From positions 868,001-924,029 of the forward strand of contig QPGO01000010.1 in NCBI GenBank assembly GCA_008632985.1: a stretch of DNA of 56,029 nucleotides, in the 5' to 3' direction. The first letter of the stretch is position 1; every line of letters starts with the position of its first letter. A program made the position numbers and the translations under genes. The notes below the pieces were generated by a model that saw nothing but the letters and a program-made list of their open reading frames with translations, ran no database searches and was not told the origin of the DNA. Positions 14,096 through 37,027 of this stretch are shown here, in pieces. Source of the DNA: Psammoneis japonica. Lineage: Eukaryota.

Positions 14096-15007
14096 TCAAC
14101 TATCCATGGTACATATCCTTTCACAGTAGCGTTCAACTAATCCCTTACAGATTGATGGCGGTTCAAAATCGAAAAAGCAGTAGTCTTGCTTCACATGTTT
14201 GCAGATTCTCAAAATAACCGCGGGACTGACATCGTGATGGAGATTATGAAATCTCATCTTTTTCCGATTTCTCAAGGACACGTTTCTTACAAGAGACTCA
14301 TTCCAGTGCATGCGATGGATTTGGAAAAACATCTTTATATCCTTCATCTCACCAACAAATTTGATCCGATCCAGGTAGCGGAGTGGCTCGGTTCTATGAA
14401 TCAAATATTCTATTTGAGGCGCTGTGTGGCGAAAGCAAATGTTTCCTCGCGCCTTGTTTAGGAATTCCAAAACTGATTGGTTGGAGTAGGCAAAATGAAA
14501 TGATGTTGGCTGCTGGCGAAGGGCGCATTCCTTGAATCCAGCGAAAAAGTGATCTATTGGATCTCGAACAAACGTAAAGAGGTCATGGGTTGCGTACACG
14601 GGATTTTCCCTCGACAAAACGAAGGAAGATAGATTGCACTGACGAGATATAGTTGTCCCTCCTGCCTTGAGGATGTGGATGTAAGCCCATCTATCATTGC
14701 AGTCACAAAGGTGCTCACTGTTGAAGTCCCGTCTTGTTTGGACGGCATACTTTCGAATGCAGGGAAGATTTCGATTCCATGACTTGCTTTGCAAGAAAAA
14801 GGCATTACGAGTTGTAGTGTTTGCCGATAAAACCAGGTCGCCCGTCATGCCAACGACAGATGATTCTAGCTCGGAGGAAGCCGCACCATTGTTTTTGTCT
14901 TTGTCCGCCTCCGCAAAGATCACGCCAAACACTACGAGATACTGCACGGTTACAAATGCTAGGATGAGCAGGGGAATAACTGATTTTCCTTTAGCGGCAC
15001 CAAACAT
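14096..15007 (-). CDS. Type II membrane (Golgi-type) sulfotransferase-family protein, ~303 aa
   Basis: Likely start ATG at 15007 (MFGAAKGK). Signal anchor VIPLLILAFVTVQYLVVFGVIFA, 5'-PSB-like YIHILKAGGTTI, 3'-PB-like FTFVRDPIDHF and C-terminal DYCFFDF. Confidence 0.85.
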   Translation of the reverse strand: MFGAAKGKSVIPLLILAFVTVQYLVVFGVIFAEADKDKNNGAASSELESSVVGMTGDLVLSANTTTRNAFFLQSKSWNRNLPCIRKYAVQTRRDFNSEHLCDCNDRWAYIHILKAGGTTISRQCNLSSFVLSRENPVYATHDLFTFVRDPIDHFFAGFKECALRQQPTSFHFAYSNQSVLEFLNKARGNICFRHTAPQIEYLIHRTEPLRYLDRIKFVGEMKDIKMFFQIHRMHWNESLVRNVSLRNRKKMRFHNLHHDVSPAVILRICKHVKQDYCFFDFEPPSICKGLVERYCERICTMDS

Positions 15008-18000
15008 TTTCTTCTCCAACGAAAGAAGCGGCACCAAAGGAACGACGCTTTCGGTACAGCATACAGAAGAAATGATGCTTTGCTTTGTTCTTTCTATCAC
15101 AAGAGTCTCTATTTCAAACGGAATTTTGCCAACAGCTCGGTTGGCAAAAATGACCGTCAGAATAGGTTGGGAACCTGTCCCGAAAATCTCGATTCAAACA
15201 GACGCAAAGACAAAAGACCTCCTACTCGAGTTGCACGCAACAAACTGCGGCGCAGCACAATGATGAGTGCCGCCGGTGTCACCGTAGGCATTTTGATATC
15301 TCAACGAGTCTTTCACCGATTTTCCAGTTTCTTGTTTCATTCTTAGCGATAATTTCACAATCTGTCCGATTGGTTTTGGTCCCATTGTGTGTCAATTTCA
15401 AGTTTCAAGGTCAGAAAGAATGACACCCAAAATGACCCTTCAACCGCAGCAACGATGACCGATGAGGTGGCTGGACCTGGACGAGATGGGCGCTCGTGCT
15501 ATGCCAGTGTGTTGGACAGATCGATTAGATGTAGATGCGATGCATGTGGATGCATGAGATGTTCTGGTCCCTTCTCTGGCTGAAAATCAGCATGTTCCTC
15601 CTCCCCCTCCTGTGCAGACGAATGAGGGTGTGGCCACCTCCCATGAGGAGACCAGGGGGCGTGACTGAAACAGAGCTTGGTCTGCTTGGCACACAGCTCT
15701 TCTCAAATCACGATGTTGCAAGGCCATGCTGACACATCTCTTTGGCTTTGGACTTTAAAAATCAATGAAAAAACAAGCAGTTTTGCTTGTCAGAAAGTGT
15801 GCAAGAGCACCACAAAATTTGTGGCACAAGTTGTGGAGAGAACAAGTTGTGGAGAGCTTCTTCATGAAACACCTTCGCTGGGCTGGGAAGCACAGGGCCA
15901 TGGAAACAGTCTCTGGATGAGTTGAAAGTTGCCAGAAGTGCAGCTCTGTCATGGCAGAGTCTGTTGCAAAGATCATCAATGTTCTGAGCATCCCCCCTCC
16001 CTTCTCACTCAGGCCTGGCAGCTCCAATTTGTTGCGCTTTCAGATTCTGTCTGTCTGCAGGGTCTGGCACCTGCAAAAAGATTTCCAAATTTCTCTTCAT
16101 CTTCAGAGCAGAGTCAAGCCAAGTGCTTTCTGTGCTGGCAATGATGGGCTTGGCATGCCCCATGTGCCAGCAATGACAGCACATTTTTCTTTGAAGTGTG
16201 CGCCAATGAAGCCAAGGAGCCAACTTGCACCAAGTGGTGCCAAGGTGGTGCAGCGACCCCTTTGAAGAAGGCTTTTTCCCAGCATCTTCATGTTTGGGGC
16301 TGTTTGAGATGATTTTGTCATGAATGACAGCACTCGCCAACTGTGGGCAGCATTGTGTTTGGAAGTGAGTGGATTGAGCAGTTGATGCACACCTGTGCAG
16401 ATGGACTTTGCTTTGCCAACATCATTGTGCTCCCCAACAAAAGCTGCTTGCTCCTCCCACTTGTCCAAGAATCTTCTCACTGCACAATGATGCCACACTT
16501 GGCAAATTGCTTGAAGTGGAGCTTTGCACGGTGGTCGTCATCCATCTTCTGGATCAAACAGGTCAAGTTGAAAGCAACATTTGTGCCCTTCTGAAGGGCA
16601 GAACAAACAAGTTTTGAACCTGTCATCCATGGAAAAAATGTTGAGAATGTGTGGGTTGGCTCTGGCATGAGAGCATCAGACAACAGGCTGGGTTGTGAGA
16701 ATCACAGCACTCATTGCACTGAACATGTGCACTGCTGTGAGCAATGTTCTCTGTTGACAAATCTTTTTCTTCAGCTGCAGGAGGACATTTGAGTGCCTGT
16801 GGTGACCCCAGCAACTGCTGCTCCTCTCCTGCCCACTGTTCCTCAATCCTCAAGCAAGTCTCCCTGCTGTCATGAACAAATTTGGACACCAAGCCTTGCA
16901 ATGTGCTGACCTCCTCAAACTTGGTCCTCCAGTCCTCTGTTTCCAGCACCGTTTTCTCAAAACATGATGAGTTTGGTGCACAATTCATGTTGGCACCAAA
17001 GTCAACCCACATCAGTCCTCTGGAGACAATTTGTCTGCACAGCATTGATGTTGCAACCATCCGCAGCTTCTGCACTTGCCCGGTTCTTTCATGTGCTTGC
17101 AACCTGGCATGAGCATGATGATCTCTTGCAGACACATTGGTCATTGCTGGGCACACTTTCCTAAAACCATGCATTGCCCACTGCGCATCATGGTCTTGAA
17201 AATCAGCACTGCTTGAGCAAGACAAGGGCAGGACAACTTGGTCAGTTTGGGTGGCTGCCAGATGCTTTGTGCAAAGTCCAGCAGCATGTTGCCTCTTCCT
17301 TTCTTCATCAACAACTCCCAGCCCCAATGTTTGCAAACACAACCCAAGTCTTTGCAGCTCCTTGCAACATCAGCAATGTCTTCTCAAAACCCAGAACCTT
17401 GTTGCAGCAGGGGTGCACCACCTTTTGGCAGTGAAGATGTGTCGCCCAGTTTGCAGAAAAGGACAAACTCAGCACTTTGACACCTGGGTGTCTTTGCCTT
17501 TTTGACTTTGGTGTCAGAGTCCCTGACTGAACACTGTCAACAAAGACTCCAACACCTTGACCAACACAGTGTGCCATGACAGCAGCAGCATTTGCATCAA
17601 TGGCATCACACACAAACTCTTCTTGTGTCATCTCACAACAAGTGTCAACAGCTGGCACTGTGCTCTGAAAACTCCACAGCTTGGCTCAAATTCTCCAAAT
17701 GAAATGACTCAACAAAGCAAGCTGCAGTTTTCTTGTAGAAAGTTTTTGTTCCAAAGAGGTGTGATTTTCCTTCAAGGTTGTGCCACTTGTTGTTGTGTTG
17801 CCCAACTTGACAAGGTCAGATGGCAGCAGCTTGCTGCGGTCATTTGTGCCATGAAGACTCATTGTGTGCCATGGTGGTGGCTGGTGTTGACTTGAACAAC
17901 AACCACTCATTAACTCTAAAATCAACTTTGCTTGCTTGGGAGTTTGCTTGGTGTTGCCAAGTGTGTTCCCTGCAGCAGCGGGTGTGGTGGTGGAAGGGCC

Positions 18001-18365
18001 CACTTTGACTTCAGCAGCTGCTTCTGCTGCTTCTTGTGTGGGTTTGGCAAAGTGTGTGCCCCCATCATTTTCTGTTGCATTGGTTGCACACCTGTGTTGT
18101 TGCACAACAGCTGCCTGCACTCCAGAGAATGAGCCAGGTCAGTGACCAAATTTGGTGAGCAGGTGAGCAGCAGCACTTTCTCTGGCAGCTCCAATTTGCT
18201 GATGCAAAAGACTGAGTTCAGCCACCAAAAACTGAGTGTGCTGATTTGCACTTGAGCTGCATGATGATGATTGCTCTTCAGACAATGGGCCAAGTCAGTG
18301 ACCAAACTTTGTGCATGGGTGTGCAACAGCATTTTCTCCAGCAGCTCCAACAGGTTGGTGCAGTG

Positions 18366-18537
18366 TGTCACGGTCAGCTGTAGAGCTCGTAGGACAGACG
18401 GACAGACGGACGGATGGACAGACGGAGCTCATTCGCACTGACTCAGAGAGATGATGTCGAAGATTCTCTGACGTAGCTAGCTCATAGACCACAGAGTAGT
18501 CGCAAGCCTCTTTAGCTCACAACATCTACACAAGACA
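18366..18537 (+). mobile_element. 172-bp LTR of a Ty1/Copia-type retrotransposon (copy B 43866-44037)
   Basis: Termini TGTC...GACA form an inverted pair. It is followed directly by GGTTGTGTAGCCC, which resembles the copia half-tRNA-Met PBS GGTTATG(G/A)GCCC with a TA->TG change, and then by a gag-like ORF. Confidence 0.7.
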
Positions 18538-18601
18538 GGTTGTGTAGCCCTCGTTGCCTCTGCAACCTTTTTGACAACAAACACCACCAACACCCACCAC
18601 C

Positions 18602-19757
18602 ATGGCACCACCCTCCAGCACCAAACGCACTGGCAAGTCCAAATCGGGCAAGGGCTCTTCTGAATCGCAGAAGCCCAGCGCCACCGCGACGCCCTCGCCA
18701 TCTCGCAATGCAGGGTTGGCCGGCATGGAGCGCGTCCCTCGAAAGAAGGGTGGGAAAGTCGACACGGCTCTCGATGAACTCATCGAACATGCGCCCAAAA
18801 AGGCGCCGCGTGATGACGATGTCGACCATCAGAACCCTGATGGCAACGCACTTAAGGACGATGACGTGCGTGACAATGACGGCATTGCAAAACTCATGTC
18901 AGTGACGAACTCGGATGATGTGGACGTTTCTGACGATGACAGTGTCTCGTCTGACAAGTCCGACAAGTCCAACGCGGAAACCCCCGCAAGCGCACCAAAA
19001 AGCACTTGTCTGAGCGCAAGCACGAGAGGCTTGCCGCCCGCATTGACGAAGTCACTGCGGCTGCATGCGCTGACAAGCGCATTGCACAACCAGCTAAACC
19101 GCTAGAAGACAAATTGACTGTGTCCCCTGAGTCATTCTTTGGCTTCCTCTTTTGTCTTGAGGAACGTCTTCAGAGCTCCCCTGTGTGGGCGAAAGTCATG
19201 AAGCTCAACAACGGCATGTCTTTGACAAAAAACTTTGCCAAAGTGGAAGCGCATGTTTTCGAATTCCCAGCTGATGTGCCATGGGGTGTTGAAACCGACG
19301 AGGTCATCGCCAAGAAATCCGATGGCCAGACATCCATGCATTTCGCGCAACGTGCGCTCAAGGCCCTGCTTGTTGCCTCGTGTGACAAAGAGCTGCGTCA
19401 GGCGATTGCGTCCGATGAAAATGTCATGGATCATCTCCATGAGGATGGCGCAATGTGCTTCTGCCACGGCTTCAAGCAGCTGTTCCCGTCGCCCGAGATG
19501 TGTGTTAGCGGCATCCAGACAAAATTGTCTGAGGCAGGTTTCTCTCATTGACGATTGCGATGGCAATGTCAACGCGCACATGCATGAGTTCAGGCAGCAC
19601 CTCCGCCTGGTTCACAAGCATGATGACATGCTCGAGCACACTCTCGTCGAGAAAGCCTTCAACGAACTCCAAACCGCCGCATGCAAGCCATTCGCAGCCA
19701 AGATGGCCGAGCATGAGACCGATTGGATGCGCAAGAAACACGTTAAATGGACCGTCA
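18602..19757 (+). mobile_element. Frameshifted, 3'-truncated gag-like ORF of the LTR element
   Basis: ATG at 18602 shortly after the PBS. Basic/acidic low-complexity N-terminus followed by a helical domain with IDDCDGNVNAHMHEFRQ (IDDYDGNV... after reversing TA loss). No pol or 3' LTR seen. Confidence 0.6.
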
Positions 19758-22700
19758 CAGCAAATCAAATTTTTGCTGGTCTTCACCCAAGCACACAACA
19801 GACAAAGCACACAATGAATCAAGTGGAGCAAAGCCAAGCAACACCAAGTCTTCAAAGTGCAAAATGTGTCATGTCTGGAGAAGCTTGGGCTTGAAAACAA
19901 AACCTTGATCTTGACTTGGCTGACTTGAGAACTCAACTTGGTTTTTGGCTTGAGGCTTGGTCCGTGTTGCAGGTCAGAAGCTTTTCCACACCATGCCATC
20001 CCACACACAGATCACATTTTGTCCAGTCATTTTTGCCAAACAGCTGATGATCAATGATTGCCACACATGCCAGAAACTGCAATCTCTGGCAGGTGATGAC
20101 AAAACTGTCTGGTGCTGAATCCTGCATGGGCACAATCATGTGTGACAAACCCAGTTCTTCCTTGAGCCAGCAAGGTGTGGTGGGTGCAGGCTGTGGTTTT
20201 GGTGCTGGGGCAGGGCCAGTCACAGGAGCAGGTGTTGTTGCTGTTGGCTGGTGATGGGTTGGGGTGTGGGAAGAGGAGATGTGGGGTGCGACATTGGCAG
20301 AATGTTGCCAGGGATGCTGCAGGGATTTGGTTTGCCTCCAAGTGATTTCCAAAGCCAGCGGTGCCAGGTCATCCAGATTGACAAGAGACTGGACAGCTGA
20401 CTTGATGCTGAGGTGGCCTCAATGATGCACAGACTTGCTGCTGATCTTTTGGGTGAAGGCTTGCTTCTGAGGATGTTGGATCTGGACCAACACGTTGTGG
20501 TGTGTCAGTTGGTGTGTGTTGCTCTGTGCCACACATGCAGTGAGTGAGCTGATCAGATGGAACCCAAGAGTTTGCCAATGTTCTGGAGATGAGTTGAAGG
20601 GCTGGTCATGTGCAATGTGTTGGGATGAGCTGACAACTTCTCCTCCTCTGTTTTTGTTGTCTGCAATCTGCACTCAGTGACTCCAAGCAAGGCAATGAAA
20701 ACTTTGGAAAGTCAGCAGGTTTGGCCTTTTGGCAAGGGCAGCTCCCAGCCTTTCCAAACCTCATGGCAAAGCTTCTTGCACAAAACAGCAGTGTTTTCCC
20801 AACTGCCAACTTGTGGCGTCCTCTCTCTGCTGCTTTTTTGCAGATCTTGCCTGCAGCCATTCTCAGCAACAGGCTCCAGAGCAGGACACCAAGTTCTGTT
20901 GGGTGAGCAGCCTTCTCCCATGATGGTGGATGGCATGAGAGGCAAGGTCTCAGCTGGTGAGATGCCTGGAGCTGCTGTGTGGGTGCAGACACCTGCTGGC
21001 CATGTTCCAGCTCTGGGCAGGACCTCATGCTGCTGGACTGTGGCACGAATGTTCTTTGTTGTGCTTCACATGTCATGCAATCACACTTTGGTGGTGTTTT
21101 GCATCATTTTGCAGCACAATTGTTGGGCAATCCATGCAACAATTTTCATCCATGCAACAATTTTCAACACATTTTTACACAAAGCTGCTCTTGAAAGTCT
21201 GCAGAGTGGTGCAGTGCAGCTGGATTTTCAAAAATTGTGAGTGCAAGGAATTGTGATTGCACTGCAAACTTGGCCATTTGTTTGGACGTCAAAGACAAAC
21301 ATGGTTGTTGCTCAGCACACAAGCTGCAGAGCTTGTGCATGGAATTTGGGGGGGGGGGGGGGGGGGGGGAGGGCAGAGCACATTGCTGCAAAGGCATGTT
21401 GGGTTGGGAGCTGGAGGAGGCAACAAAAGTCAAGCAGGCAGGCCAGTGCAATTGTGAGCAGCTTGGGGTGTGTGGCTTGTTGCAGGGTGAGATGCAAGCA
21501 GTCCTGGAGGCTCCAGAGTTGGCTGTCATGTGAGTTGGTGGTTTTGCATGGCAAACATTGGTGGCAGAGTTGTTGGGCTGGGTGTTGGATCAGTCCCTGG
21601 AGGAAGACTTGGCTGCAGACTCAAACTTGACTGTGGACTTGGGTTGGGAGCAGGAGGAGGCAAAGGAGGCAGGACAGTCTGAGTTGGACTGGCATCAGGT
21701 TTGGTGTGCTCTTGGGTGTGGGCAGCAGGAGACACCAAGGAGGCAGATCAGGTGGGCCTGCAGATGAAGCAAGGTGTTGCAGCCTGGGTGTCATGTGATT
21801 TGATTGATGTGTGGATGAAGGTGTGCCAGATGTTGGACAGCTCAAAGTTTCAGATGGAGAAGTTGAGGGCAACATTGAAGGCATGAGAAGCAGAAATTGC
21901 TTGGTCCTGCTGAAGGCACATTGTCAGGGCTGAACAAGAACTCAGCACTGAAGACAGAGCAGCCAAGGCACTGTCAAGAAAGGGATGAAAGACAGAGCAG
22001 ATTGCTCAGTTTGGCTGAAAAAGTGCTGTTTTAAAGATGGGCCAAAGGTGATGCAGGCTTGGTGAAGGAGGGCCAGCCATTGAATCTGGTGTGCATGAGA
22101 TGGGTTGCACTTTGCCTGGGGCTGGGACCAGCCAGAGAGAGGAATGCTTGCCATTGTCAAAATGCTGAAATGGCACATGGATCCAATCTTCTTAGTTGCT
22201 GCAAAACCTTGCACATGCTGGCTGCAAAATGTTTGCTTGCAAAGCACTCAATGCCAAGCAGCGCGCAGTGCACTGGCACTTGACATTCAAATGATGTGGG
22301 CCTGAGCTGTGGCATCAACAGCTGTCACAACAATTTGGTTGCTGGCACACTGTCATCTCAAGCTTGCTCTTTGCTTGGACCACAAATGAACAATCCTGCA
22401 GCAATGGAAATGCTGGAAGTGCTGCTGTGTGTCCTCTTCACAAGGCCTTCATGGCAGATTCACAAGACACTTGTTCAGTCACAAATCAAACAGCACAAGG
22501 AGGACACAAGCCTGCTGCAGAAAGAGCTTGAGTGTTGGGCAAGTGCTCCATGTGCTTTTTCATGGGGGGGGGGGGGGAGAAATGTCAACAAGACAGCTGG
22601 CTCTCACACCACAAGGACAAAGTTGTTGTTCCAGCATTGCTGTGCAGGCAGAAGCGGGTGACTTGCTGGTGTCTTCCCCAGCTGTGCCATCCCAGAGAGA

Positions 22701-23110
22701 CACAACCTGAAATGTTGGTTGCCCAACACTTTTTCACTGGTGCTGCACACCAGCTGCAGCATGTTTCACAAAAGGGAAAATTGGGGTTGTGGGAAGTTGC
22801 CAGGGAAAAGGTGGCTAAAGTTTCCCCACAGGGACCCCATGCTGTGTGCAGAGACATGACAGGGGAGCACAGCACGGTCAAGGAAAAAGGAAAAAAAACT
22901 GCACGTTTGATTGACTCCACAAAAAGCTGGTTTGAGGTCACTGGCACATCTGCAAAGTGCGCTGACATTGTGTCCAGTGTTGTTGAGCAACAAGCATGGC
23001 CACACAGATGTGGACAACCAAGAAATGAAATCTTCAACAGAGGAGCTGATCTTTTCATGATCTTTTTCAGTCAAACAACACAAAAGGACTTGCCTTCAAA
23101 AGAAACCCTC

Positions 23111-26100
23111 TCCAGCTGTGCAGGCAGTTCTTTACAAAACCTGCAGGGTTTGTGCTGGAACTTGTGTGGAATTTGATGAGGGTGCAGCTCCATTGTGACG
23201 AGGACAAGTGGAAATGCACAGTCCACTTTAGCACATGTTAGACAAGGATGCCTGAGGAGGAATCCTCTTCATTTCCTTCATTCCAGTCAAATGCTCCTGA
23301 TTTGGCATGCCGCGCCACAAGAAAAGGCCATGCACATCACACTTTGATGCATCTTGCCATGGCACACATCATGGGGCAGATGTGTTTTTCATGGGTGATC
23401 TCTTTCCATCATTGTCGTGAAGAGGTTGATGCATTGGTTTGGTCTCCTGGGGTGCTTTGGTTGCTGCGCATGCTGCAAATGGTTGCATGCCTTGACTCGC
23501 AACTCAAATGCGGCACAGTGCGGGTGACATCTGAATGGTCGACAACTTTGCCGCAGTGAGCTCTTTCTACATTTTCTCATTTTATGCCAGTTGAATGCTC
23601 ACCAAAGGTTGTTGTTGCATTTTGTCACAGCTTGCAAGGTTGATTGATTGTCTTGTGCGGTTGATTGTCGCTTCTGCAACATTGGCAACTTTTTCACCGC
23701 GTTTGCACCACCAAAGTGCATCCGTTTGGGAGCTTTGTGCTTCATCCCACTGCACATCCTGTGGTGCAACCATTGTTGACATTAAGATGGACTTGTGATG
23801 CACTTGACATCCTTCTTGGGGTTTTGGTTGGTGCACAACAATGGCACGTCATTTTTTGGGCATCACAATTTTCTGAAAAGTGCACGCCGATTGGAACAAA
23901 ATGACGTGATGGAGCCTCGGGGATGCTCCTGACGTTGGTGTTTGTCGTGCAGTTTTGTCATTGTCCAAAGAAGACAAACCAGTGAGTGTGTTGCAGTCAA
24001 CTGGCTTTTTGACCCTTTTTGACAAAATTTGCATGCCTCACAAGCCTCTTTTTGTGAGTCTGGTCAATGTGCACAGGTGTCTGGTCTACAGCGGCCCCTT
24101 TCTTCCTGCTCTGCAATGGTGTCATCTTTGCTGTCTTCATGTTGCTTGTGCTGTCCATGTTGTTTTGGGAGAACTTGGCAGTGTGCCTTCCAGTCTGGGC
24201 TTTGCACTTGGTAAAATGGAGAAAGGGAGGAGGGAGAATGGTTTTGCTGGTCTCCTCATGAATGCAACGAACCGCTGGTGACACTTGGGGCCATGAAATT
24301 TGGCCGGGTGACTCACAAGTCTTTTGACATCATTTGTTGATTTGGGAAATTTGGTTTCTGAAACTTTCAGTCTGGAGAGGAAATGGATGGAATGGTGTGG
24401 GACCTGCTGAAGATTTGTGGCAGAGCACTTGGCAGGCATGCTGCTGTGCATTGACTGTGGAGTTAGTCAGCTGTGGGGGTGTGCTTTTCTGCATTTTCTG
24501 TGAGCAATGAAGCAGCAGATGTTGTGTTTAGACAGCCCATGGCGTGTCACTGTTCTTTAGAGTGTTTGCTCCACCGGCACTGGAGAGCAGATCAAGAGCT
24601 GCGGCGCCAATCATCTGGTCATTGTGCACGCACATTGAACGCATTGCAGAGCCTGCAAATCTTCTCTCTCCTCCTCCTCCTTTTCTCTTTTTTTTTTTCT
24701 TCACAAACTTGGAGCTGCCAGGAGCCACCTGCATGACCAGACATGTGCCAATTTCTGGCAATCATCCAGCTGTGCAGGCAGCTCTTTACAAAACCTGTGG
24801 GGCTCATGCTGGAACTTGTGTGGGATTTGACAAGGGTGCTGTTCCATTTTGACGAGGACAAGCAGAAATGCATGGTCCACTTTAGCACATGTTTGACAAG
24901 GATGCCTGAGGAGGAATCCTCTTCATTTCCTTTGTTCCACTCAAATGCTCCTGATTTGGCATGCCGCACCACAAGAAATGGCCACACACATCACATTTTG
25001 ATGCATCTTGCCATGGCACACATCATGGGGCAGACGTGTTTTTCATGAGTGATCTCTTTCTGTCATTGTCACAAAGAGGCTGGTTGGTTTGGTCTCCTGG
25101 GGTGCTTTGGTTGCTGCACAACATGCTGCAAATGGTTGCGTGCCTCGACTCGCAACTCAAAAATGCAGTGCGGTGTGGGCAACATCTGAATGGTCGACAA
25201 CATTCCCATGGCAAGTTCTTTCTACATTTGCTCATTTCATGCCATTTGAATGCTCGCTGAAGATTGTCACTGCATTTTGTCACAGCTTGTGAGGTCGATT
25301 GATTGTCTTGTGCGGCCGATTGTCACTTCTGCAACATTGGCAACTTTTTCACATTGTTTGCACCACCAAAGCGCATCTGTGTGTGGGAGCCTTGTGCTTC
25401 ATCCCACTGCACATCCTGTGGTGCAACTGTCTTTGACATCAAGACAGGCTTGTGATGCACTTGATGTCCTTCTTGGGGTCTTGGTTGGCACACAATGATG
25501 GCATGTCATTTTTTGGGCATCACAATGTGCGTGCACGCCGATTGGAACAAAATGACGTGATGGAGCCTCGGGGACACTCCTGATGTTGGTGTTTGTCATG
25601 CAGTCTTGTCATTGTCCAAAGAAGACAAACCAGCAAGTGTGCTGCAATCAGCTGGCTTTTTGACCCTTTTTGTCAAAATTTGCATGCCTCATGAGCCTTT
25701 TTTGTGAGTCTGGTTGATGTGCGCAGGTGTCTGGTCTACAGTGGCCCTTTCTTCCTGCTCTGCAATGGTGTCATCTTCGCTGTCTGTCATGTTTTGCTGT
25801 CCATGTTATTTTGGGAGAATTTGGCAGTGTGCCTTCCAGTCTGGGCTTTGCACTTGGTAAAATGGAGAAAGGGAGGAGGGAGGATGGTTTGGCCAGTCTC
25901 CTTGCAAATGCAACAAACTGCTGGTGACACTTGGGGCCATAAAATTTGGCCGGGTGACTCACAAGTCTTTTGACATTGTTTGTTGATTTGGGAAATTGGT
26001 CTCTGAAATTTCAGTCTAGAGGGGAAATGGACAGAACAGTGTGGGACCTGCTGAAGATTTGTGGCAAAGCATTTGGTGGGCATGCTGTTGCATGTCGACT

Positions 26101-26389
26101 GTGGAGTTAGTCAGCTGTGGGTGTGTGCTTTTTCTGCATTTTTCATGAGCAGCAAAGCAGCAGACATTGCATTTAGATGGCCCATGGCACGTCACTGTTC
26201 TTTAGACTGTTTGCTCTGCTGGCACTGGAGAGCAGATCAAGAGCTGCAGCGCCAATCATCTGGTCATCGTGCATGTGCATTGAACACATTGCAGAGCCTG
26301 TGAATCTTCTCTCTCCTCCTCTTTTTCCTCTGCTTTTTTTTTCACAAACTTGGAGCCACCTGCATGACCAGACACATGCCAAATTTCTG
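23111..26389. repeat. Older diverged tandem duplication, 2 x ~1.65 kb (units start at 23111 and 24765; copy B 48611-51887)
   Basis: Both units run from TCCAGCTGTGCAGGCAG.TCTTTACAAAACCTG to GGAGCCACCTGCATGACCAGACA, with many transition differences. Confidence 0.92.
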
Positions 26390-27200
26390 ATGTGCAGGGA
26401 GGAGCTGATTGAAAAATTGCAGTGTTGCCCATGTTGTGCTGCCGGTGCTCCTGGTGTTCCATTTTGTTGTTGTGTCCATGCCTCATTGCTGTCATCTCTT
26501 CACAAGACCTGTTTCATCAACTGTCTTTGCCACATGTGCCACATGTGACCGTGTGTTGTGCCACCCAGGTGCTTCCTCTGGCAAGCAATGGATGTCCATG
26601 GGGAAACACCATGTTGTTCTTTTTGGGCCATGTGGTGCAGTGCTGCTTCTGCACAATGATGATTGCACTCACAACCTGGTTCAATTTCAACATGGATCTT
26701 CACATCATGGTGGAATGCCGTGGTTCGCGACAAGAATGACAGCAAGAATTTGGCTGCTGACTGCCCAAAACCACTCATTTCAACAACAATGCACCATGTG
26801 CTGGTTCTCCATCATCCCCTGAGATCGACAGTGCCATGACACAGGTCCTCACTCCACCATTGCCGTCAAGCCAAAGCACGCAAAACGAAAAAGACGATCT
26901 TCCATCAACAATGCAGACGCAAAAACAGGCCAAACAATGTCATTTCTACACCATGCACAATTGCTTGTGGGTTGATTGATGAGTTGGAGGCCTGTCAGGG
27001 TGGTGGCAATGTGTTGCCATGTCAGCAGCGGTGGCATTTTGGTCATTGTGGTGTGTTTTGTGCCCATTTGTGTGAACTCTGTGACGGTGTGCATTCCGAC
27101 CGCACAAACAAAAAACATGTGGAAGCAGTGCCATTTTGTGTGGCCCAAAAAGAACAACATGGTGTTTCCCCGTGGACATTTGTCACTTGCTGGAGGGAGC

Positions 27201-29790
27201 ATGGGAGTCGCCTCAGCAGGGAAACTCTTGCATCATCTGGAGAAAGTCTCTCTTGACAAGAATCTCACCTGCGTTCTCTGTTTTGGGGCACGTCAGGTTG
27301 GTTGCAGTGTCTCCATCATTGCTTTTGATGCAAACTGGCTCTCCCAAAAGCTGCCATTAAAAAAGAAGGGTCCCATGTCATGAGTTGTTGATCTCATCAA
27401 GACAAGTTTCTTCTGATTGAAATCCATGCAATCGCTGTTGCTGATGGCATGAAGCATCACCATTCAAAGAAAGCAACCCCCAAAAAAATTGCCAAGACTG
27501 AACAAGCCAAGCTTGACTGTCCAGTGCTTTGAAAGAAAATTTTTGAGAAAGCAGAGTGGACTCATCCACCGTCTGTTGCTCTGCAAGAGCTCTCTGAGTT
27601 GAAGAAAGAGATGACATGTCTTGAAAAGAAGGTGACTGCAAAAGAGAGCTGCGCTCAAGAAGAGATTCCTTTGGATTTTGTCAACAACTTGGAGTTTGAG
27701 GTCAACAAGCTCAATGAGGACAGCAAGATTTAAGCACATGCCAAGCCATTGGCAGCAAACACACAGGTGGATTGTGTCATTTGCAAGCAGGCTGCATGCC
27801 AAGAGATTGATGGCGCCATCGCAAATGGCTCGGATTTTTGTGTTGCAGCCAGGAAGGACATGTTGCTCATCAAGAATTTCACGTTTGGGCACAGAAAGGG
27901 TTTGTCAGCTCTTCAGAACATGATGTTGGCAGCTTCAGTGGAATCTGTCTTGGCGGATGCAGTTCAAGATGGCATTGGGAAGGACAACACGAGTTGCACC
28001 ACAAAATCCAAAACACCACTTTTCCAAAAGGAAGACCCAATGATGAGGGCAATGATTGCTGTTGAAATTGGGTGCAACACTCTGCCTGGCGGGGTCCCAA
28101 GTGTTGGCACCAAAAGCATTGAAGAGTTCTTCAGTGCCAAGCCCAACGCGTCTGTGGATGATCTTGCGTTGCACTGCGAGAGCAAGTCATCCATGAACCC
28201 AACTGTGCTTTGTGCATTTGGTTTGGCCATGATCTGTGAGCCTGGCAACACATGTGATGAGCCGGTGTTGCAAAAGACACACTCATTCATGGCCCTCCAA
28301 CAGCTCTCCTGGATCATCTTAGAAAGTTTGCTGCTGGGACAGACATTGTGGTAGATGATTCTGTTGGCAGAAGTGACTGCTGCAGTTGTTGTGGCATTGG
28401 TCATGTGTTTGCCACCAGCAAGGACTTCAAATTGTGTTTGGAATGCAAGTCAACACTTTGCAAGCTTTGTGTCATGGATGCAAAGGAGGCAGACTCTGCA
28501 AGAGTCAATGTGCCACACTGCATCTCATGTCTGAGTGCTGCTGTGGGTGTTGACACCAAGGCGGAAGAGTCTCAGATGTCAACATCTAGGATGCATGAGG
28601 AACTTCTGTCTGCAAATGTGCGCGACATTGCCAACCTGTCCATCAATGAAGTGGAAGAGCTGCATGATGCAACAGTCAATGGAAAACACAATGAGATTGA
28701 TGGTTTGGATGACACTCAGTTTCCGGAGTGGCCTTCAAGTGAGACAAACAATTCATTGCATCTTCTAAAGAAAGTGCCACTAGATTTTGGTGATGGAGCA
28801 CTGTTCCTTCAAGCTGAGGAACTGGAGGACAAAGAGATCTGCAGTGTGGTTTGCATTCTCTCTGAGCTTTTGAAGTTCTCTGGCTTGCTGGACAAGAGCA
28901 AAAGCATGCATGAGCAAGCTGTTCCTGACATTGTTGCTCATTTTGCTCGAGAATCAAGATGAGACAGTGGTGAGCAGCTGATGAAGCACACAAATTGGCA
29001 CACTGCTGATCCTTGGTCTCAATCACTCGTGACAGCAACGGGTGCCATTTGTTGTGATTGCAACCTTGATGTGGCCTGCACTCTCATTGATGGAATGGCG
29101 TGGGCATCTGTGAAGGATGAGACACATGAAACAAGAGTGCACTTTTCTGCTGAAAGGCTCATTTGCTGCAGCTGCACATGCAAAGCTGGTTCACAGGGAT
29201 TGGAGAAGGTCATCTGTGTTCATGCTCTCTCCATCAAACAGAAATTGTGTCATTTGCTTGTTGATGGTCCAGCTGAACATGCGGTGTGTGAGTTGTCCAC
29301 TTGGTGGCAGGCGCCCAGTCCAGCTCTTAATGCACAAGTGGCAACTGATCTTCAAACTGACATTCTTTACCTGCTCAGCGTGGTTGATGCCTCCAAATGG
29401 ACTGGCTTGGCAGATGATGTTGCTGTTGGCACCATCTTGTCAAAACACTCCGTCAGAACTGAGAATGCAAAAGCACCGCCCATGCTGCTTCCAGTCAACA
29501 CCGCATTCCAGCCACTCCACACCTGCCTTTTTCAAAATCTGGCACAGAAATTCATCAATGAGATCAAGGGTGCAATGGATGCTGTTCATTCAGTTGATCA
29601 ATCTGCTTCTGTTTCTGCAGACCCATGCAATGCTTCCACTGAAGCTCCAGACTGCAAGCACATCATTGCTGTGAAACTAACTTTGTGCAACATTCTTGAG
29701 CGGCATGAGAAAGCAGGCAACTTCCTCAACTCCAGTTCAAAAAAGAAAACAGCTGACTGCATTGGCAACCACCTGTCTGCCTTTTGAGCA
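27201..29790 (+). pseudogene. Degenerate XPG/FEN1-like nuclease + Cys-rich (PHD-like) finger + SWIM zinc-finger protein
   Basis: Motifs in the expected order: MGV (27201), IIAFDANWL, IAVADG...HSKKAT, QVDCVI...EIDGAIANGSDF, IGCNTLPGGVPSVGTKS (H3TH-like), C..C...LC..C, and ASVKDETH...CSCTCKAG....ICVH (SWIM). Several stops and frameshifts. Confidence 0.75.
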
Positions 29791-30002
29791 TCAACTGGGG
29801 CCCCCAAACTTGTGACCAGGGACAGTGTCCAAATGTGCAACAAGCTGTCAATGGCATTGTTGGACGTGTGCAAAAGAGGATGTGTGGACCAGAATCCTGT
29901 GATTTGCAAGGTCAACTCACATGCCAGTAAAAAGACTGCCACAGAAAATGATGCAGATTCAATTGATGTGCAACACGAATCCAAACCGCTGGCCAAGAAG
30001 CA

Positions 30003-30430
30003 ATGGAAAAGTGTGGCTGGTTGGGAACTGATGAGCTGTTTCCTGGTGCAATGTCTGACTCTGATTGTTTCAATGAAACAGGAGTGTTGGAAGTGCAGCG
30101 TCAGTTTCAAGAGTGCAGTGGCAGGGTGCCGTTCACCCTCATCCTTGACTGTGGCCATCGATCGACTTGGGCGGCGCGGCACAATGTCCAGTTTGTGCTG
30201 CAAGCAACATTTGCACAGAGTGACAAGAAGTTCTCCACCGTTGATGTGCTGAGAGCTGCAAGTGTTGCTGCTGATCCTTCTGGAAATGAACAGGCTGTGC
30301 GTGTTGGAAAAATGTCATCATTCGTGAAGCGAGGAATGGAGACGCACAAGAATGTTGTGCGATTGTGCAACGCCTGGCTTGCGCGGAGCTTCCAAGCCAA
30401 CTTCATGTTCAAACCAGTGTTGCAGCTGTG
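30003..30430 (+). mobile_element. C-terminal part of a PIF/Harbinger/ISL2EU-type (DDE_Tnp_4-like) transposase
   Basis: GWLG..LFPGAMSDSDCF, ILDCGHR (D-x-G-Y), KKFST.DVLRAASVAADPSGNEQAVR (A..R...E). Confidence 0.75.
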
Positions 30431-33400
30431 GTTGACAACACTGCACTCAGAATTGGAGCTTGGTGGGCTGCCACCTGAAGCTGTGCTGGGCATGCCACAC
30501 AGTTCAGGGCTGTGGCTGCTGGGTGATCTTGCATTGTTGTGTGAGTTGGCGCTGGCTGGGCACACCAGCTTTGGTGGAGTTGGGCTGGTTGCTGACTTTG
30601 TCACAGGAGGAAGACTTGGATTGCATGGACTCAATTTGGGAACAAGATGAGTCACCAGAGGCAGAGCAGATGTGCCAGTCCAATTTGGTGCAGCCAAAGG
30701 TGCTGGGCTTTGCATGGGTTGGATGTGGGAAAGCCTGTGGGTGGGAGTCAGCTGTGTGACTGTTGAATGTCGGTGACAGGAGAAGGTCTTTGCTGCAGAG
30801 AGCTGCTTTGACTGCAGCTTGCGCAGTGCAAGGCTGCTGCTCAGAGCCATGCTGAGCATGTCACTCAGTGCAGGACCACATCTGCTTGGCAGTCTGGCCA
30901 CAGTGTGAGACAGCAGTTTGGCATCACCAGCGCTGGTGGCAGAGTTGGATTGGGCATCAGATCTGGCACAGGAGGAGGAGTTCTTGGCCATGGACTCAGA
31001 GTGGGGTCAAGAGGAGAGCAGGTGGGCACACAGAAGGTGTTGCAGCTTTTTGGCTTGGTTTGGTTTTGTCCATTTGGGGATTCCCCAAAATGGGCAGGGT
31101 GAGGGGAGTCACTTTGCCCTTTTGGGGAAAACCTGGGAAATGAGGGCAATTTGGCAGGAAGGAATGCCTGAAAGGGCTCAGGGGAGGGGAACAAAAACAA
31201 GTGGAGTGCAGCAATGTGCAATGACCACAGTTGGGCGGGTGTGCTTTCATCCCCACAACCATCCATCGTGGGCAACAACCACAACTGATTTGTCAACACA
31301 TTGGCACAAAGCGGCCCCTTGTGGCAGAGTGAGAAAAGAACAAACTTTGTCATTCAATCATCAATGTTAATGTTGCTCATGCACAGCTCTGTTTTTGCCT
31401 TGGCCTTTGCTCTGGAGCCCTTGTTGTTTGCATTTGTGACCACATGACTCAAGAAGGAAAAAATGATCCACTGCGTTCTGCACATGAGATGGGTCAAAGG
31501 GAAGAACAAGCACAACAATTCAATCTGCCACATTTTTGTTGGCCATGTGCAGCTCTGCTTTTGCCTCGTCCTTTGCTCTGCATGCCCCATGGCTTGCATT
31601 TGTGACTGCACGACCCTGCCGGCAGAGTGATTTGAGCAATCCACTTGACTCCAAACACAAGATGCATCAATTGGAAGAATGAGGCAGACTGTTCAATCTG
31701 CCATGCCATCATCATTGGCCATGCATGGTTCCACTTTTGCACTGGCCTTTGCCATGTGCCTCATTGCTTGCATTTGTGGCTGCATGACAAAAGAACAACC
31801 GCTGATGTCTGACGATCAATTGCACTGGCATTTTGCACATGAGCAACCACATTTTATCTTGTGTTTGATGCTGCAGATCCCATTCAATTGACATTGTTGA
31901 ATGCATTGAACGATGTCATGATTGATCAACAAAAGCCATCACAAATGGGGTGCGAGCACGCCATGGCGTGTTGCCCATTTTTGTTGCGGTTGGTCAACTG
32001 TCTGGCTGCATGCGTCCCAGCACACAAAAGGCATGGAAATGTATGAGAGGGGAAGCACAGGGAACTGCCAATGCACAATTTTTTATCTGTGAGTTGAGCA
32101 CATGTGTGATGAAGCATGGTTTGTGGCGGTTCCCCTGGAGTTCACACTTCCTGCAGAAAAACAGGGTGAAAGGTGGCAGCCCCAGGGGATTTGGGGGAAT
32201 CCTGCGGCAAAACCAAACCAAGGTTTTTGGGAATTGTTTGATTTGGTTGACAGTGTGCATGGATGAAGGTGCATCACATGGTGTGGGGAACTTGGGGTTG
32301 CAAAGGGAGAAGGGCAGCATCAAAGGCACAAGAGATGGAACACCGCTTGCTCCTGCTGAAGTCACAGTGCATGGAACCAAACTTGGCACTGCAGAGAGAG
32401 CAGACAAAGCAATGTCAAAGGGAAGGAAAAATGAAAGTGCTTTCAAAATTGCCCTGAAGGCGATGCAGATCACCAGGTGGATGGTCAGTCTTGTTGGACT
32501 TTGTGTGGCCACAGGCAGCCAGTGGCTGAGGAGTTGGGCTGGGCATTGGATCAGGCAGAGGAGAGGAAAACTTGGCTGCAGACTCAGACCAGATGCAGGA
32601 GGAGATGAAGGAGGCAAAGGGGTGGGCATGTGTCAATCCAATTTGAAGCTGGCAAAGGCTTTGGGTGGTCTGGTGCAGGAACGGGTTTGGGCAGCTCTGC
32701 TGGCTCTGGAGTTAGCCACAACATCAGATCAGGGGCAGGATGAGTGCCTGAGGTTTTCACTTCAGAGCTGCACCTGGGCACTGGGCTGCCACCTCTTGGG
32801 TTGCACCAGTTGTGTCATTTGGCACATGGGGTTGTGCACAACTTGGTGCAGCCTTGTTGCATCACCCAAATTTTCCACACGAGTTGTTTTCTGAAGTGCT
32901 GTCACATCATTTGGCACCTCCACTGCCTTGCTGTCTGCTGATGACACATTGTCCTCCTCAAAAGAATGGAGGAGTTTTCATCATGTGGGCCAGAACTTCA
33001 GCAAACCCTTGTGGTCAAGGGGCGTGCAAAAGAGGAGGACACTGTGCAGCCACACACTCATGTGCAGACCTTCCAGTCAATGAGTTTGACATTTTTTCAG
33101 CAACTGCCTCGTTGACATGATCTTGACACAAAGGGCATCACAACGGGAAGAAAAAATGAGCACTGTTGGCTGCTGCTGGGTGAATGACCAAAAACAGTTG
33201 TGCGCAATTTTCCACGGGGCTTGAGTCCTGCCACTTCAGCAGTTTTTCATCTTTTGCCAAAGCAACATGGCTCAAACCCCACAGAAATCATGTGGGGTGG
33301 ACAACACTGCCCACAAAATTGGGGATTGTGATGCTTGTTGTGCGCGAGTCATGGCAGTCATTGGCACTGGCACTCACCACCAGCTTGCTGAGATCCGCTG

Positions 33401-33508
33401 GCTGAGTGTGTCAACAAGGCTTGCCAGCCAACATTTTTGCAAAATTTGCTTGTTTTTGTGCAGGTGCACTGTCCAAGCAATGGCGCTGGGAGTGTGCAGG
33501 AGAGCTGA

Positions 33509-33853
33509 GGGCACCCAAGTTTTGCCCCAAAGGTGGGTGCCCAAGTTTCACCCCAAAGGGGGTGCCCAAGTTCACTCTAAAGCTGGGCTGTGCCCAAGTT
33601 TTGTTCCAAAGCTGGGCACCCAAGTTTTGCCCCAAAGTTGGGCACCCGCACAGGTTTTTCCCAAAAGTTGGGTTCCCCAGTCTCCCTCCCCCCTTCCCAA
33701 AGTTGTGCACCCAAGTTTCGCCCAAAGGTTGGCTCCCAAATTTGCCTCAAAGCTGGGTGCCCAAGTTTTGCCCTGAAGCTGGGCACCTCCAAGTTTTGCC
33801 CCAAAGTTGGGTGCCCAACTTTTGTCACCAAGTTGGGCTTCTTGGTGCACCCA
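33509..33853. repeat. ~26-bp degenerate minisatellite GGG(CA/TG)CCCAAGTTT(TG/CA)CCCCAAAG(T/C)T
   Basis: About a dozen recognisable head-to-tail units. Confidence 0.9.
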
Positions 33854-34824
33854 AACACAAGCCAGCTTGCCAGCAATGGGCAGCAGCTCTCAAGTGCTCA
33901 TGGGGCCAGCATGGGCTGACTTTGACTTTGGAGATGTTGTGCAGATCAGCAACAAGGGGCAACAAGCAAGTTCAAAAATGAACAAGAGCAGCTGCTCAAG
34001 GTTGCCAGCAGCACTGATGCTGACACAAGATGCTCTTTCTCAAGAGAAATTGTGGGTGCAAACCAAGCAAAGATCAAACAGTCATTTTGTGAGGAGAAAC
34101 AATGGATTTTTTGAATCCAGCCATCTGGGTGACACAGACAGTGATGTCATCAAGAACGACCACAACTGCGGCACAAAGACTGCCCAAAACCTGTCTTGTC
34201 GCTGCTCAAGGATCGAGCAGTTGACAAAGCAGCAATGTGGGGTGATGTCAGCTCACCCTTTGGACTGCCCTGTGGTGTGCATCAGTTGTGCCACCAGCAC
34301 CAGTCAGTGGGGCCACAAGTGCTGGGGGTGCAAACAAACTGTGATGAGGCTGCACTCATCATGCATGGAGGCTCACCTTCAAACATGAAGCGGCGCTTGT
34401 CCAAACTTGCTCTTTTGCGTTGTTGCTGCCTGCAAAGAAGGAGCTGAAGCTGCTCCAAAGCTGCTGGAAGAGGAGCTCAAGTGGTGCCATCTGGGCTTCA
34501 CAGCGCTTGTCTCAACTTGTTTTTGGAGCAGATGCTGCACTCAGGTGCCATGTTTAAAACAGCGGCCATGTGCTGTGACTCTGCTCCAGAGGTTTTGTTG
34601 GCAAGGGTTCTGTGATTTGCAACTTGCGACAAGAGAAAAAGAGGTGTGTGTCTGTTGCTCTCTTCTTTGTTTTGTCCAACACCATGCCACAGTCCATCAA
34701 AAAATTTCATCCACGAAGTTGAACATCTTTCATGCGTCGTTCATTGTTTGAGTCACCCGGCTGTGTCTTTCAGTGCAGCAGAAGTGCGCAAGGCCTGCAG
34801 TCTGCCGCACCGCACAGCACAGCA

Positions 34825-34934
34825 CCGCATGAAAAAACAGCAGCCGACCATGGACAAAACAATGACACCATGATGTGATTGACTGACAGAAACCGACAAG
34901 AGCACATTGTCAGTGACACACAGCAAATTTTATG
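34825..34934 (+). repeat. Extra ~110-bp diverged copy of the duplication's first sequence, located at the junction
   Basis: CCGCATGAAAAAACAGCAGCCGACCATGGAC...AAATTTTATG directly precedes the full copy at 34954. Confidence 0.9.
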
Positions 34935-35371
34935 AGTGGGGGCCCAGCAGGGGCCGCATGAAAAAACAGCAGCCGACCATGGACAAACCAATGACACCAT
35001 GTGATTGACTGACAGAAACTGACCAGAGCACATTATCAGTGATAGTAAATTTTATGCCTGTCTTAATCATTGTAGCATTTTATTTTTAAATCAATTGATT
35101 GCATACAAAACCCCCAACGACTGAATTTCGCGATAGGAAACTTGATCTTAGAAACGACAAATTAACGCTTTAATAAATAATTGCGTCGAAAAGCGTTACA
35201 CGAGAAAAAAACACGCAAGAGGCACGCGGAGTGAGCGAGCCCCCTTTTCCCGCTCAAATCGCCTCGATCTCTCCCGCAGTAGAAAATCATCTCACTTTTT
35301 TTTCTTTGCTGGGTCGACCAAGCTCCTTTCGTACATTTTTTTGTAAAGCAGTAAAGAAAAGTTTGTTCAAC

Positions 35372-37027
35372 ATGAGTGGTAAGTCTCTATCTCTCGTACG
35401 GAACTTGTTCTTTTCCTCTGCGTTGTTTGCTCATTCGCTCGTTCCTCCTTACAGAGAAATCGGACTTGCACAAAGCTCTCAGCATCTTCAAGATGTTCTA
35501 CTCCACCGTTCTCCTTGTGTTCTCGCTGGTGATCGTTATGGGCTTGATCTTCACAAGGCAGACGGCGTGGTCCGAGCAATACCATCCTGCTCTTGCCTTT
35601 ATTATCCTTTGGGTGATGTTGATTTGGCTCTCGTTCGTCGAGGGCGGACAGGCTTCGTTGGTTGGACTTCACCCGATTGACCGTGAGCTCTACAAGGACA
35701 CCCACCCGATCGCTTACAAGGGCAATGCCATGACCCAACAGGGAGATAACCTCGATCGCTACCTTATGGGCCGTCAGTTCATGGTCATCTTTATCGTTTT
35801 CCTCATCAACAAGTGTGGAGCCCCCATCGAAGGTGCTGAACTCTGGGGATTGCCAAGTGGATTGTCGACATCTTCCTTGTCACCGGATTCGCCATGATCC
35901 TCTTTACGGCACAGGTCGGGCAGTTGCAGTCGCAGGTCAACGCATCGCTCTGTATGCTTGACTACTTCAACGATTATGCAAACCTCTTCACGCTCTACAC
36001 TGCCAGGGCGATTGAATTCACTGGTCTCATGCACTTCTCCTACTTTATCCAGATTTGTGTTGGATACCTTGCTGGCAAGCCCATCGAATCCAAGGAGCCT
36101 CCGCGCAGCACCGGTCAATCTCTTTTCTTCTGGTTCCGTGTCCTTGTCTCGTTTGTCGTCCTCGGCTTTGCCTTGGCAGTCACCCTATCTGCTCTTTTCC
36201 AAGGACAAACCACCATGTGGGACGGTGTTCCCGAGGCAGTTGCCGTGATTCTTTTCTTCCTCCTCATGTCTGTCGTTGGTATGCTCGAAGGTATGCAGAT
36301 TGCCTTCTTTGCCGTCGCCAAGCTTACCAAGGACGAGCGTGGAAGAGCCAAGTGTGCCAAGATGACTTGCGACCTCCTCTACAAGGGCAGGGGACACAAC
36401 CTTCCCAATTTCATGATTGGCCGTCAGCTCAGTGTCGTGTCTTGCTTCTTCATTATCTCTCGTGTCACCACTGTCTCGATGGACGAGGGCAAGGGCAACC
36501 TGTGGGGTGTTAGCGATGGACTCCAAGAACTCTTTGAAACTGGTTTCCTTGGTGCCACCATTACTACCATTCTCGGATCCATCTCGTGGCAGCTTGTCGC
36601 GTCTGCCTTTCCCATTGCCTTTTTGTCAAACCCCATCACCTACCTGTTCCTCCGCATCTGTCTATTTTTGGAGGCCACCGGTATTTGCTCTGGAGCATGG
36701 TTCCTTGCCAAGATTGACAAGAAGGTCCGAGGCTTTAAGCGTGACGAAGTTTACATTGGCACTGCTGAGGAACGTGCTGCGCGCAAGGGCGGCAAAGAAG
36801 ACGAAGAAGAAAGTGTCGAGGCTGGCCATTTGTACCCGGCTGTTCCACTCTTGCCCAAGGACGTAGAATACAATGACCTCTCTCTCGATCAAATCGAAGA
36901 ACTCGAGGGCGAGATTGATGAACACATGAAGGAACTGCAGGAGCGCAAAGCCGGTTTGTCACTGCAGAAACAAAAGCTGATGAATCCTGACGGTTCAAGC
37001 GGCACTGCTGACATTGAAGAACCCTAA
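35372..37027 (+). pseudogene. SIT: Second SIT copy with a 1-bp deletion frameshift (possibly a consensus error)
   Basis: Otherwise matches the first copy. TTGCCTAAGTGG reads TTGCCAAGTGG at ~35854, which splits the ORF into 35376-35897 and 35894-37027. Confidence 0.85.

Follow-up and report, generated by a model that had tools for sequence, protein, structure and literature searches.

Probable domain-restricted hypermutation of TpA to TpG and CpA in mobile-element DNA of the diatom Psammoneis japonica

In a stretch of the Psammoneis japonica genome the dinucleotide TpA has been almost eliminated from long domains that lie directly against gene islands in which it is ordinary. The stretch, hereafter the window, is 56,029 nt long (assembly GCA_008632985.1, contig QPGO01000010.1, positions 868,001-924,029 of the forward strand; coordinates below are counted from its first base). 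We consider it likely that the pattern was produced by a real, domain-restricted mutator that acts on DNA and converts TpA to TpG or CpA, as a first-pass annotation of this DNA had proposed.

The ratio of observed to expected (o/e) TpA is 0.06 at 1-9170, 0.05 at 15540-35030 and 0.06 from 41045 to the end of the window; the gene islands at 9170-15540 and 35030-41045 have 0.55 and 0.54, respectively. CpG is also reduced (o/e 0.26-0.29 in the purged domains, 0.90-0.92 in the islands), and CA and TG are in excess, with o/e values of 1.76-1.87 and 1.74-1.82 in the purged domains and of 1.12-1.15 for both in the islands. These regional ratios agree with the annotation, which had described near-elimination of TA, reduced CG and surplus TG and CA outside islands of ordinary TA and CG content; TpA in the purged domains is nowhere close to its genic value. 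In the interval 15540-35030 there are 65 TA, the expectation being 1239 from base composition and 770 at island frequency, and by 1-kb window most purged windows hold 0-5 TA while island windows hold 20-56. Both AA (o/e 1.25 purged, 1.19 island) and TT (1.21 and 1.18) are retained, which upholds the view that the process is specific for TpA rather than for WA (W, A or T). The GC dinucleotide stands at 78.5 per 1000 in purged DNA (501-9100 and 15600-34900) against 53.7, and TC, GA and AT are lower; the GC enrichment comes partly from changes of TAC to TGC and of GTA to GCA, and the remainder may be ancestral composition.

Is this simply a contrast between coding and non-coding DNA? Non-coding stretches within the islands retain TA (for example, o/e 1.04 at 11501-12000), so that is not the contrast. 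TA density flips within about 200 bp at each border (at about 9173, 15350-15532, 35034 and 41038), and the proposed restriction to domains is thus borne out by embedded islands that are untouched even in their non-coding parts and by sharp borders. A further consequence is seen in the stop codons: counting both strands there are 101 TAA plus TAG and 919 TGA, and because TAA and TAG are gone the window is filled with spurious long open reading frames (ORFs), of which 76 reach at least 150 aa. A Pfam scan of 139 ORFs of at least 90 aa from TA-poor DNA gave no match at E ≤ 0.1. The interior of the purged domains holds a PIF/Harbinger-like relic and dispersed repeats, with sharp borders toward the islands; the identification of part of the purged DNA as transposable elements is indirect.

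The window also contains a 25.5-kb tandem segmental duplication, in which 9446-30530 and 34954-56029 differ by 44 substitutions and 35 indel columns and are 99.58% identical. As duplicates, the second island and the final purged domain do not count as independent observations. The features of the purged DNA are:

501-9170: TA-purged domain 1, TA o/e about 0.06; a sub-block at 7.5-9.0 kb is TA-purged yet CpG-rich
15540-35030: TA-purged domain 2, the interval of the first-pass annotation; 65 TA against 770-1239 expected
18501-20000: young block, TA o/e 0.06-0.18, CG o/e 0.64-1.04; genomic paralogues exist
23111-24757, + strand: copy a of a 1.6-kb tandem repeat
24765-26389, + strand: copy b of the 1.6-kb tandem repeat, with 43 CA/TG discordant dinucleotides versus copy a
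27200-30430, + strand: candidate decayed coding region of a PIF/Harbinger-like DNA transposon (P0001 family), internally deleted relative to its long relatives
29991-30425, + strand: putative remnant of a DDE_Tnp_4-type transposase domain, containing the motifs SDSDCF and DCGH
41045-56029: TA-purged domain 3, duplicate of 15540-30530, with a 15-N gap at 46854-46868

The lost TA became TG and CA through transitions. On this direction, which the annotation had proposed, the mass balance of dinucleotides, the tandem repeat, tyrosine codons polarized by an outgroup and paralogues in the same genome agree. Per 1000 dinucleotides, from island to purged DNA, TA falls from 39.5 to 2.7 and CG from 50.3 to 14.1, and TG rises from 73.2 to 118.1 and CA from 67.2 to 109.1. 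The losses are thus 36.8 TA and 36.2 CG, and the gains 44.9 TG and 41.9 CA. Since the combined gain of TG and CA (86.8) exceeds what the loss of CG can supply (36.2), CpG decay alone is insufficient. Deamination of 5-methylcytosine (5mC) at CpG was considered as the whole cause and rejected: it operates here, yet it can explain neither the loss of TA nor the size of the TG and CA gain.

The two copies of the 1.6-kb tandem repeat are about 87% identical and differ by 179 substitutions, 158 of them transitions. At 43 aligned dinucleotides the copies disagree as CA versus TG (22 and 21 in the two orientations), so that an ancestral YR step (pyrimidine-purine, either TA or CG) must have been resolved independently in each copy, in place and after the duplication. 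A homogeneous model based on 11 CG/CG and 32 CG/mutated columns leads one to expect about 11.6 such sites from CpG ancestry; as this division of two copies into CG and TA ancestry hinges on homogeneity of rates, it serves as support only. Concordant columns number 169 for TG/TG and 118 for CA/CA, and both strands were hit at similar rates. Along the pair the CA and TG outcomes form 30 runs, with 22.5 expected, and 0.65% of shuffles reached 31 or more. Strand-coordinated tracts were therefore rejected, the runs test having gone the opposite way (alternation above chance), and long processive tracts on a single strand are unlikely. Paralogues elsewhere in the genome have TA where the window has CA (19091 and 19280), show the reverse at 19095, and differ from the window by a TG/CA swap at 19254-5.

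The outgroup comes from relatives of the element in domain 2. At 28.2-30.3 kb a reading frame has 2 stops in 500 codons, the median being 13. A search of 1.84 billion representatives with its translation, P0001 (28261-30252, 664 aa with TGA read through), yielded 312 relatives at E ≤ 1e-3, of which 116 reach E ≤ 1e-10. P0001 itself has no Pfam match at E ≤ 5, but when ten of its relatives were scanned the two long ones that match Pfam (P0005 and P0015) proved to have a C-terminal DDE_Tnp_4 domain, of the PIF/Harbinger type. The segment 29991-30425 aligns with the C-termini of the long relatives (tblastn, 35-46% identity; the eight best have E values from 2e-21 to 6e-31), and a direct Pfam scan of the ORF at 29967-30647 gave no match at E ≤ 0.1. 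By tblastn the element extends over about 27.2-30.43 kb. We regard it as a candidate PIF/Harbinger-like DNA transposon, an assignment made through the C-terminal DDE_Tnp_4 domain of its relatives.

None of the seven Tyr residues expected from the relatives is kept in this element. In a MAFFT alignment (A1) of 39 relatives the seven majority-Tyr columns read CAT (three times), TGC (once), Q, E and L, and in a codon-wise tblastn tally over 150 relatives seven such columns read CAT (four times), TGT (once), CTC and TTC. Of 243 positions with other conserved residues, 175 are unchanged (Fisher p 1.8e-4 versus 0/7). Conserved Arg columns are kept at 4/16 (AGG, AGA and CGA twice), and 7/16 read CAT, CAC, CAG or TGG; such changes from CGN to CAY, CAG or TGG represent parallel CpG decay in the same element. 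The family is not natively TA-poor, as shown by a median Tyr retention of 0.71 among 51 scorable sequences (P0001 included) and by a TA o/e of 0.62 at the single environmental locus of the family found in metagenome contigs; no locus was found in viral contigs.

These comparisons also bear on three motifs in which the first-pass annotation had read Cys or His in place of a conserved Tyr: DCDGNV (19553-19570), SDSDCF (30054-30071) and DCGH (30147-30158). All three exist, and for the last two the ancestral Tyr is supported, being present in 6 of 9 relatives at codon 30066 (TGT, in SDSDCF) and in 9 of 9 at codon 30156 (CAT, in DCGH). DCDGNV is unpolarized, word-index protein searches with the ORFs at 19226-19891 (among near lengths) and 18955-19548 (among longer lengths) having found no outgroup. 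A distant relative of P0001, the 950-aa P0099, has Tyr at one of the seven conserved columns and His or Cys at three, with 0.7% Tyr overall; it may be another TA-purged copy, from P. japonica or from another organism.

The loss of TA depends on its neighbors. Retention is 0.52 for TTAA and 0.31 for CTAA/TTAG, but 0.01 for ATAC/GTAT and for GTAC and 0 for ATAT (chi-square 161 on 9 df against uniform retention). The ten counts are fitted by a four-parameter additive per-strand model in which the 3' base sets the loss of A (-ln retention: A 0.34, G 0.96, C 2.05, T 2.82). Gains of product attributable to TA have ratios of 1.49 for TGC, 0.63 for TGT, 0.42 for TGG and -0.07 for TGA, and the product 4-mers make it possible to tell an effect of the 3' base from one of the base at -2. 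Although they take island frequencies as a proxy for the ancestral state and involve small counts, these figures are suggestive of 5'-TAY-3' as the preferred target on both strands, with TAG hit less and TAA least.

The purge of TA is separable from CpG decay. In the blocks at 18501-20000 and 7501-9000 TA o/e is 0.00-0.19, with CpG at 0.57-1.04 and TG/CA at 1.43-1.67, and three ORFs in 18575-19891 contain no Tyr in 596 codons while keeping many CGN Arg codons. A block that is young by the CpG clock can thus already lack TA. When the copies of the 25.5-kb duplication are compared, 4/61 TA sites, 21/265 CG sites and 18 of about 14,300 other sites have changed in the purged part, versus 0/222 TA sites, 0/301 CG sites and 1 of 5,950 other sites in the island. 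Methyl-CpG decay in purged DNA accordingly runs at about 60 times background. Nine of the 21 CpG-site differences fall in 18399-19678, a CpG hypermutability that implies methylation there. The process that removes TA would then be faster than methyl-CpG decay by at least an order of magnitude. Sites other than CG and TA have also diverged more in purged DNA than in the island, which suggests either that silent domains mutate faster in general or that the island is subject to selection or gene conversion.

As to timing, the purged state is common to both large copies, which places most of the purging before the 25.5-kb duplication; it came after the 1.6-kb one. Repeats as such may be the trigger, but besides the tandem 1.6-kb copies, 15.5-17.9 kb is also purged, and for it one genome run has only one contig at 80% likeness or more, although copies may have diverged beyond recognition. 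The 25.5-kb duplicates provide no evidence of activity after they arose, their TA-site differences lying within a back-mutation estimate made from the local background rate.

The annotation knew of no described pathway of this kind, a statement that is now outdated. In passages of a recent preprint on mutation-accumulation lines of Bigelowiella natans, two integrated viral regions are reported to mutate about 1000-fold faster than the remainder of the genome (Mettrop et al. 2026, bioRxiv 10.64898/2026.01.13.699255). In those regions 230 of 231 single-nucleotide mutations were A to G or T to C, all at TpA, in some lines only, and the TpA-only rate in integrated viral DNA was about 6e-7 per site per generation; the authors favor an ADAT-like DNA deaminase and cite the DNA activity of amphioxus ADAT2 (10.64898/2026.01.13.699255). 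This case of nucleocytoplasmic large DNA virus (NCLDV) and virophage DNA shares with the diatom changes at TpA only, to TpG or CpA, confined to domains of foreign or mobile DNA. It differs in that B. natans is a chlorarachniophyte (Rhizaria) in which mutations were measured de novo, whereas the diatom offers a fossil footprint only. Depletion is mild in the B. natans NCLDV region (rho 0.45) and near-saturated in the diatom (0.05), and the same passages of the preprint report neither CpG co-decay nor a preference for the 3' neighbor. By analogy, the diatom window would show where a process of this kind ends up, in another lineage of the stramenopile-alveolate-rhizarian (SAR) group.

How might TpA be removed? 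We propose that the target is silenced mobile-element DNA, in part a PIF/Harbinger-type transposon and in other parts dispersed repeats. A domain-restricted mutator would hit this DNA in place, changing TpA to TpG or CpA (A:T to G:C) one site at a time and on either strand, with a final loss of about 92% of TpA; it would be separate from, and much faster than, the decay of methylated CpG in the same domains, and its action would end within about 200 bp of an expressed gene island. Action at the DNA level is indicated because the polarized element belongs to a cut-and-paste type and because adjacent tandem copies were hit independently. A link with heterochromatin we infer only from CpG hypermutability, and the role in genome defense that the annotation put forward is hypothetical. 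The chemistry that we place first, though our confidence in it falls a little short of even, is the conversion of adenine in DNA to hypoxanthine by a deaminase of the TadA/ADAT kind, which would be recruited to silenced or foreign DNA. Deamination to hypoxanthine yields A to G directly, and the natural target of TadA/ADAT, A34, follows U33 and in tRNA-Arg(ACG) is followed by C, a TAY-like context. The shared feature is thus A-to-I chemistry read as A to G, and the enzyme in the diatom is a candidate only; we know of no described adenosine deaminase that works across tens of kb of double-stranded DNA embedded in chromatin.

A route through thymine would leave the same symmetric footprint, A to G and T to C being one event seen from opposite strands. 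Here a TET/JBP-type enzyme would oxidize T at TpA to 5-hydroxymethyluracil (5hmU) or 5-formyluracil (5fU), and mispairing with G or misrepair would then give T to C. Dinoflagellate 5hmU does favor TpA, but oxidized thymines are weak transition mutagens relative to hypoxanthine. The B. natans authors' preference for adenine deamination also counts against this route (bioRxiv 10.64898/2026.01.13.699255), which we think improbable.

Error-prone repair fares worse. In this scheme T:G mismatches from 5mC deamination would recruit non-canonical mismatch repair and a polymerase like Pol-eta, with A changed to G at nearby WA sites, and the TA-purged domains are indeed CpG-hypermutable as well (21/265 CG sites differ, versus 0/301 in the island). 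WA includes AA, however, and AA is undepleted (o/e 1.25 versus 1.19); TAA is the most resistant context; and TA is purged where CpG has barely decayed, so that the supposed trigger lags behind its effect. We give this explanation very little chance.

Scarcely credible is editing of RNA before integration, in which element transcripts hyper-edited by an ADAR-like enzyme would be copied back into DNA, for the polarized element is a DNA transposon with a DDE transposase and no RNA intermediate, a single strand carries TG and CA products intermixed, the neighboring tandem copies each acquired their changes separately and in place, and the 3' preference is for Y where that of ADARs is for G. The preference of ADARs for U upstream of the edited A would suit it (bioRxiv 10.64898/2026.01.13.699255). 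ADAR-type editing fixed by retrotransposition is largely refuted by the same DNA transposon and interleaved outcomes.

An artefact of sequencing, of polishing or of a modified base read as another base is equally hard to credit, even though the DNA comes from one study only, possibly the source of the assembly. A 3,024-bp read contig at a k-mer depth of about 135 matches 15375-18398 with no differences, and a second matches 19680-21337 with two (contigs at k-mer depths of about 115-135), so that the TA-free sequence is reproduced at high depth. We reason that symmetric misreading of both strands would yield mixtures of TG and CA at each site and not clean contigs. Paralogues and tandem copies, moreover, resolve the same sites differently, and protein relatives show the substitutions in a once-coding gene.

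Several points nevertheless weigh against a TpA mutator. The evidence is from one window, and the reads are from three runs of one sample in one study, possibly the assembly's own source, with the library type unrecorded. The outgroup test is small, with seven Tyr columns from a single element, and alignments driven by identity favor conserved columns. Both the mass balance and the context fit assume that the coding-rich island is a proxy for ancestral composition. No de novo event was seen, and the 4/61 TA differences between the 25.5-kb copies compare with about 2-3 expected from back-mutation at some 3,400 TG/CA sites. A further point is the excess alternation of TG and CA outcomes along the tandem repeat.

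A better-known system with a similar logic is fungal repeat-induced point mutation (RIP), where dinucleotide-specific transitions likewise destroy mobile DNA in place, spare neighboring genes and are fast compared with background. RIP, however, makes TpA from CpA (C to T), whereas the diatom process destroys TpA by A:T to G:C changes; RIP itself was rejected as the cause, TpA being near-absent and CpA and TpG in excess, the opposite of the TpA excess that RIP leaves. By analogy with RIP and the B. natans lines, the TA purge may have come in bursts. Deamination of 5mC at CpG in transposons affects the same domains and has the same TG and CA products, but it cannot remove TpA, is separable and is slower. 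ADAR and APOBEC restriction have in common with the diatom process a deaminase defense that leaves clustered transitions in mobile elements. ADAR acts on double-stranded RNA and APOBEC on C, however, whereas the diatom target is cut-and-paste transposon DNA, hit on both strands without strand clustering. To our knowledge, the known mutational genome defenses (RIP, APOBEC, decay of methylated C) all act on cytosine.

For diatoms, the full-text literature searched (with subscription journals and bioRxiv supplements outside its reach) contained no report of TpA-directed hypermutation. A mutation-accumulation study of Phaeodactylum tricornutum finds an ordinary GC-to-AT bias, and its main text does not deal with transposable elements; a paper on diatom DNMTs, in the passages concerned, names RIP only through the relatedness of DNMT4 to RID.

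What would follow if the diatom footprint is what it appears to be? The first report of a mutator that removes TpA by A:T to G:C changes dates from 2026 and concerns one chlorarachniophyte. The diatom footprint would mean that the process is peculiar neither to a single species nor to inserted viral DNA, since a cut-and-paste transposon and the silent DNA around it are also hit. To the B. natans picture it would add a DNA-transposon target, near-saturation, a preference for a 3' pyrimidine, a purge that is separable from CpG decay and precedes it, and borders of 200 bp at expressed genes. The mechanism would have to work on DNA, at single sites on either strand, prefer TAY, run faster than methyl-CpG decay and stop sharply at expressed genes. 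Comparison of genomes from the SAR lineages would be a route to the enzyme. More speculatively, and we think it unlikely on present evidence, diatoms and chlorarachniophytes could share an old, perhaps SAR-wide, defense built on a DNA adenine deaminase specific for 5'-TAY-3'. The enzyme would be brought to mobile or viral DNA soon after its silencing and would erase TpA there in bursts, ahead of methyl-CpG decay. If so, the shared deaminase would edit adenine in double-stranded DNA by nature and would stand beside RIP and APOBEC as their A:T-side counterpart. A practical consequence is that purged DNA, without TAA and TAG stops and without Tyr codons, misleads gene callers and hides transposons from domain searches.

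The gene islands, present twice through the 25.5-kb duplication, comprise:

9170-15540: gene island copy 1, TA o/e 0.55, CG o/e 0.90; the mutator left no trace
9865-11517, + strand: silicon transporter (SIT) gene, PF03842, E 1.1e-208
35030-41045: gene island copy 2, duplicate of 9170-15540

The best database relatives of the SIT protein are environmental sequences (77% identical), and the named ones are from various diatoms, such as Helicotheca (69%), Epithemia (58%) and Seminavis (56%), with no close relative of the species represented in that collection. It belongs to the diatom-type silicon transporters, which supports a diatom origin for the window. At the 5' end of the gene a GT..AG joint from 9866 to 9943 skips 76 bases at a depth of 645 in run X2. 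This run, listed as 'DNA?', behaves like an RNA library, and the gap would be a short intron at the 5' end of SIT. Its cover over 15539-23000 is almost nil, a blank that we did not count as evidence. Two further island ORFs, at 14096-15193 (- strand, 365 aa) and 12901-13368 (- strand, 155 aa), have no Pfam match; contigs from run X2 cover the region. In the intergenic part of the island, at 11659-11987, lie two 146-bp direct repeats that are 96.6% identical; no other stretch of the window is richer in TA (o/e 1.04). Finally, three stretches at or near island edges, 9001-9467, 15072-15538 and 20676-21142, are dispersed high-copy repeats, with summed contig depths in the genome run of 5592, 580 and 720 versus about 115-135 elsewhere.

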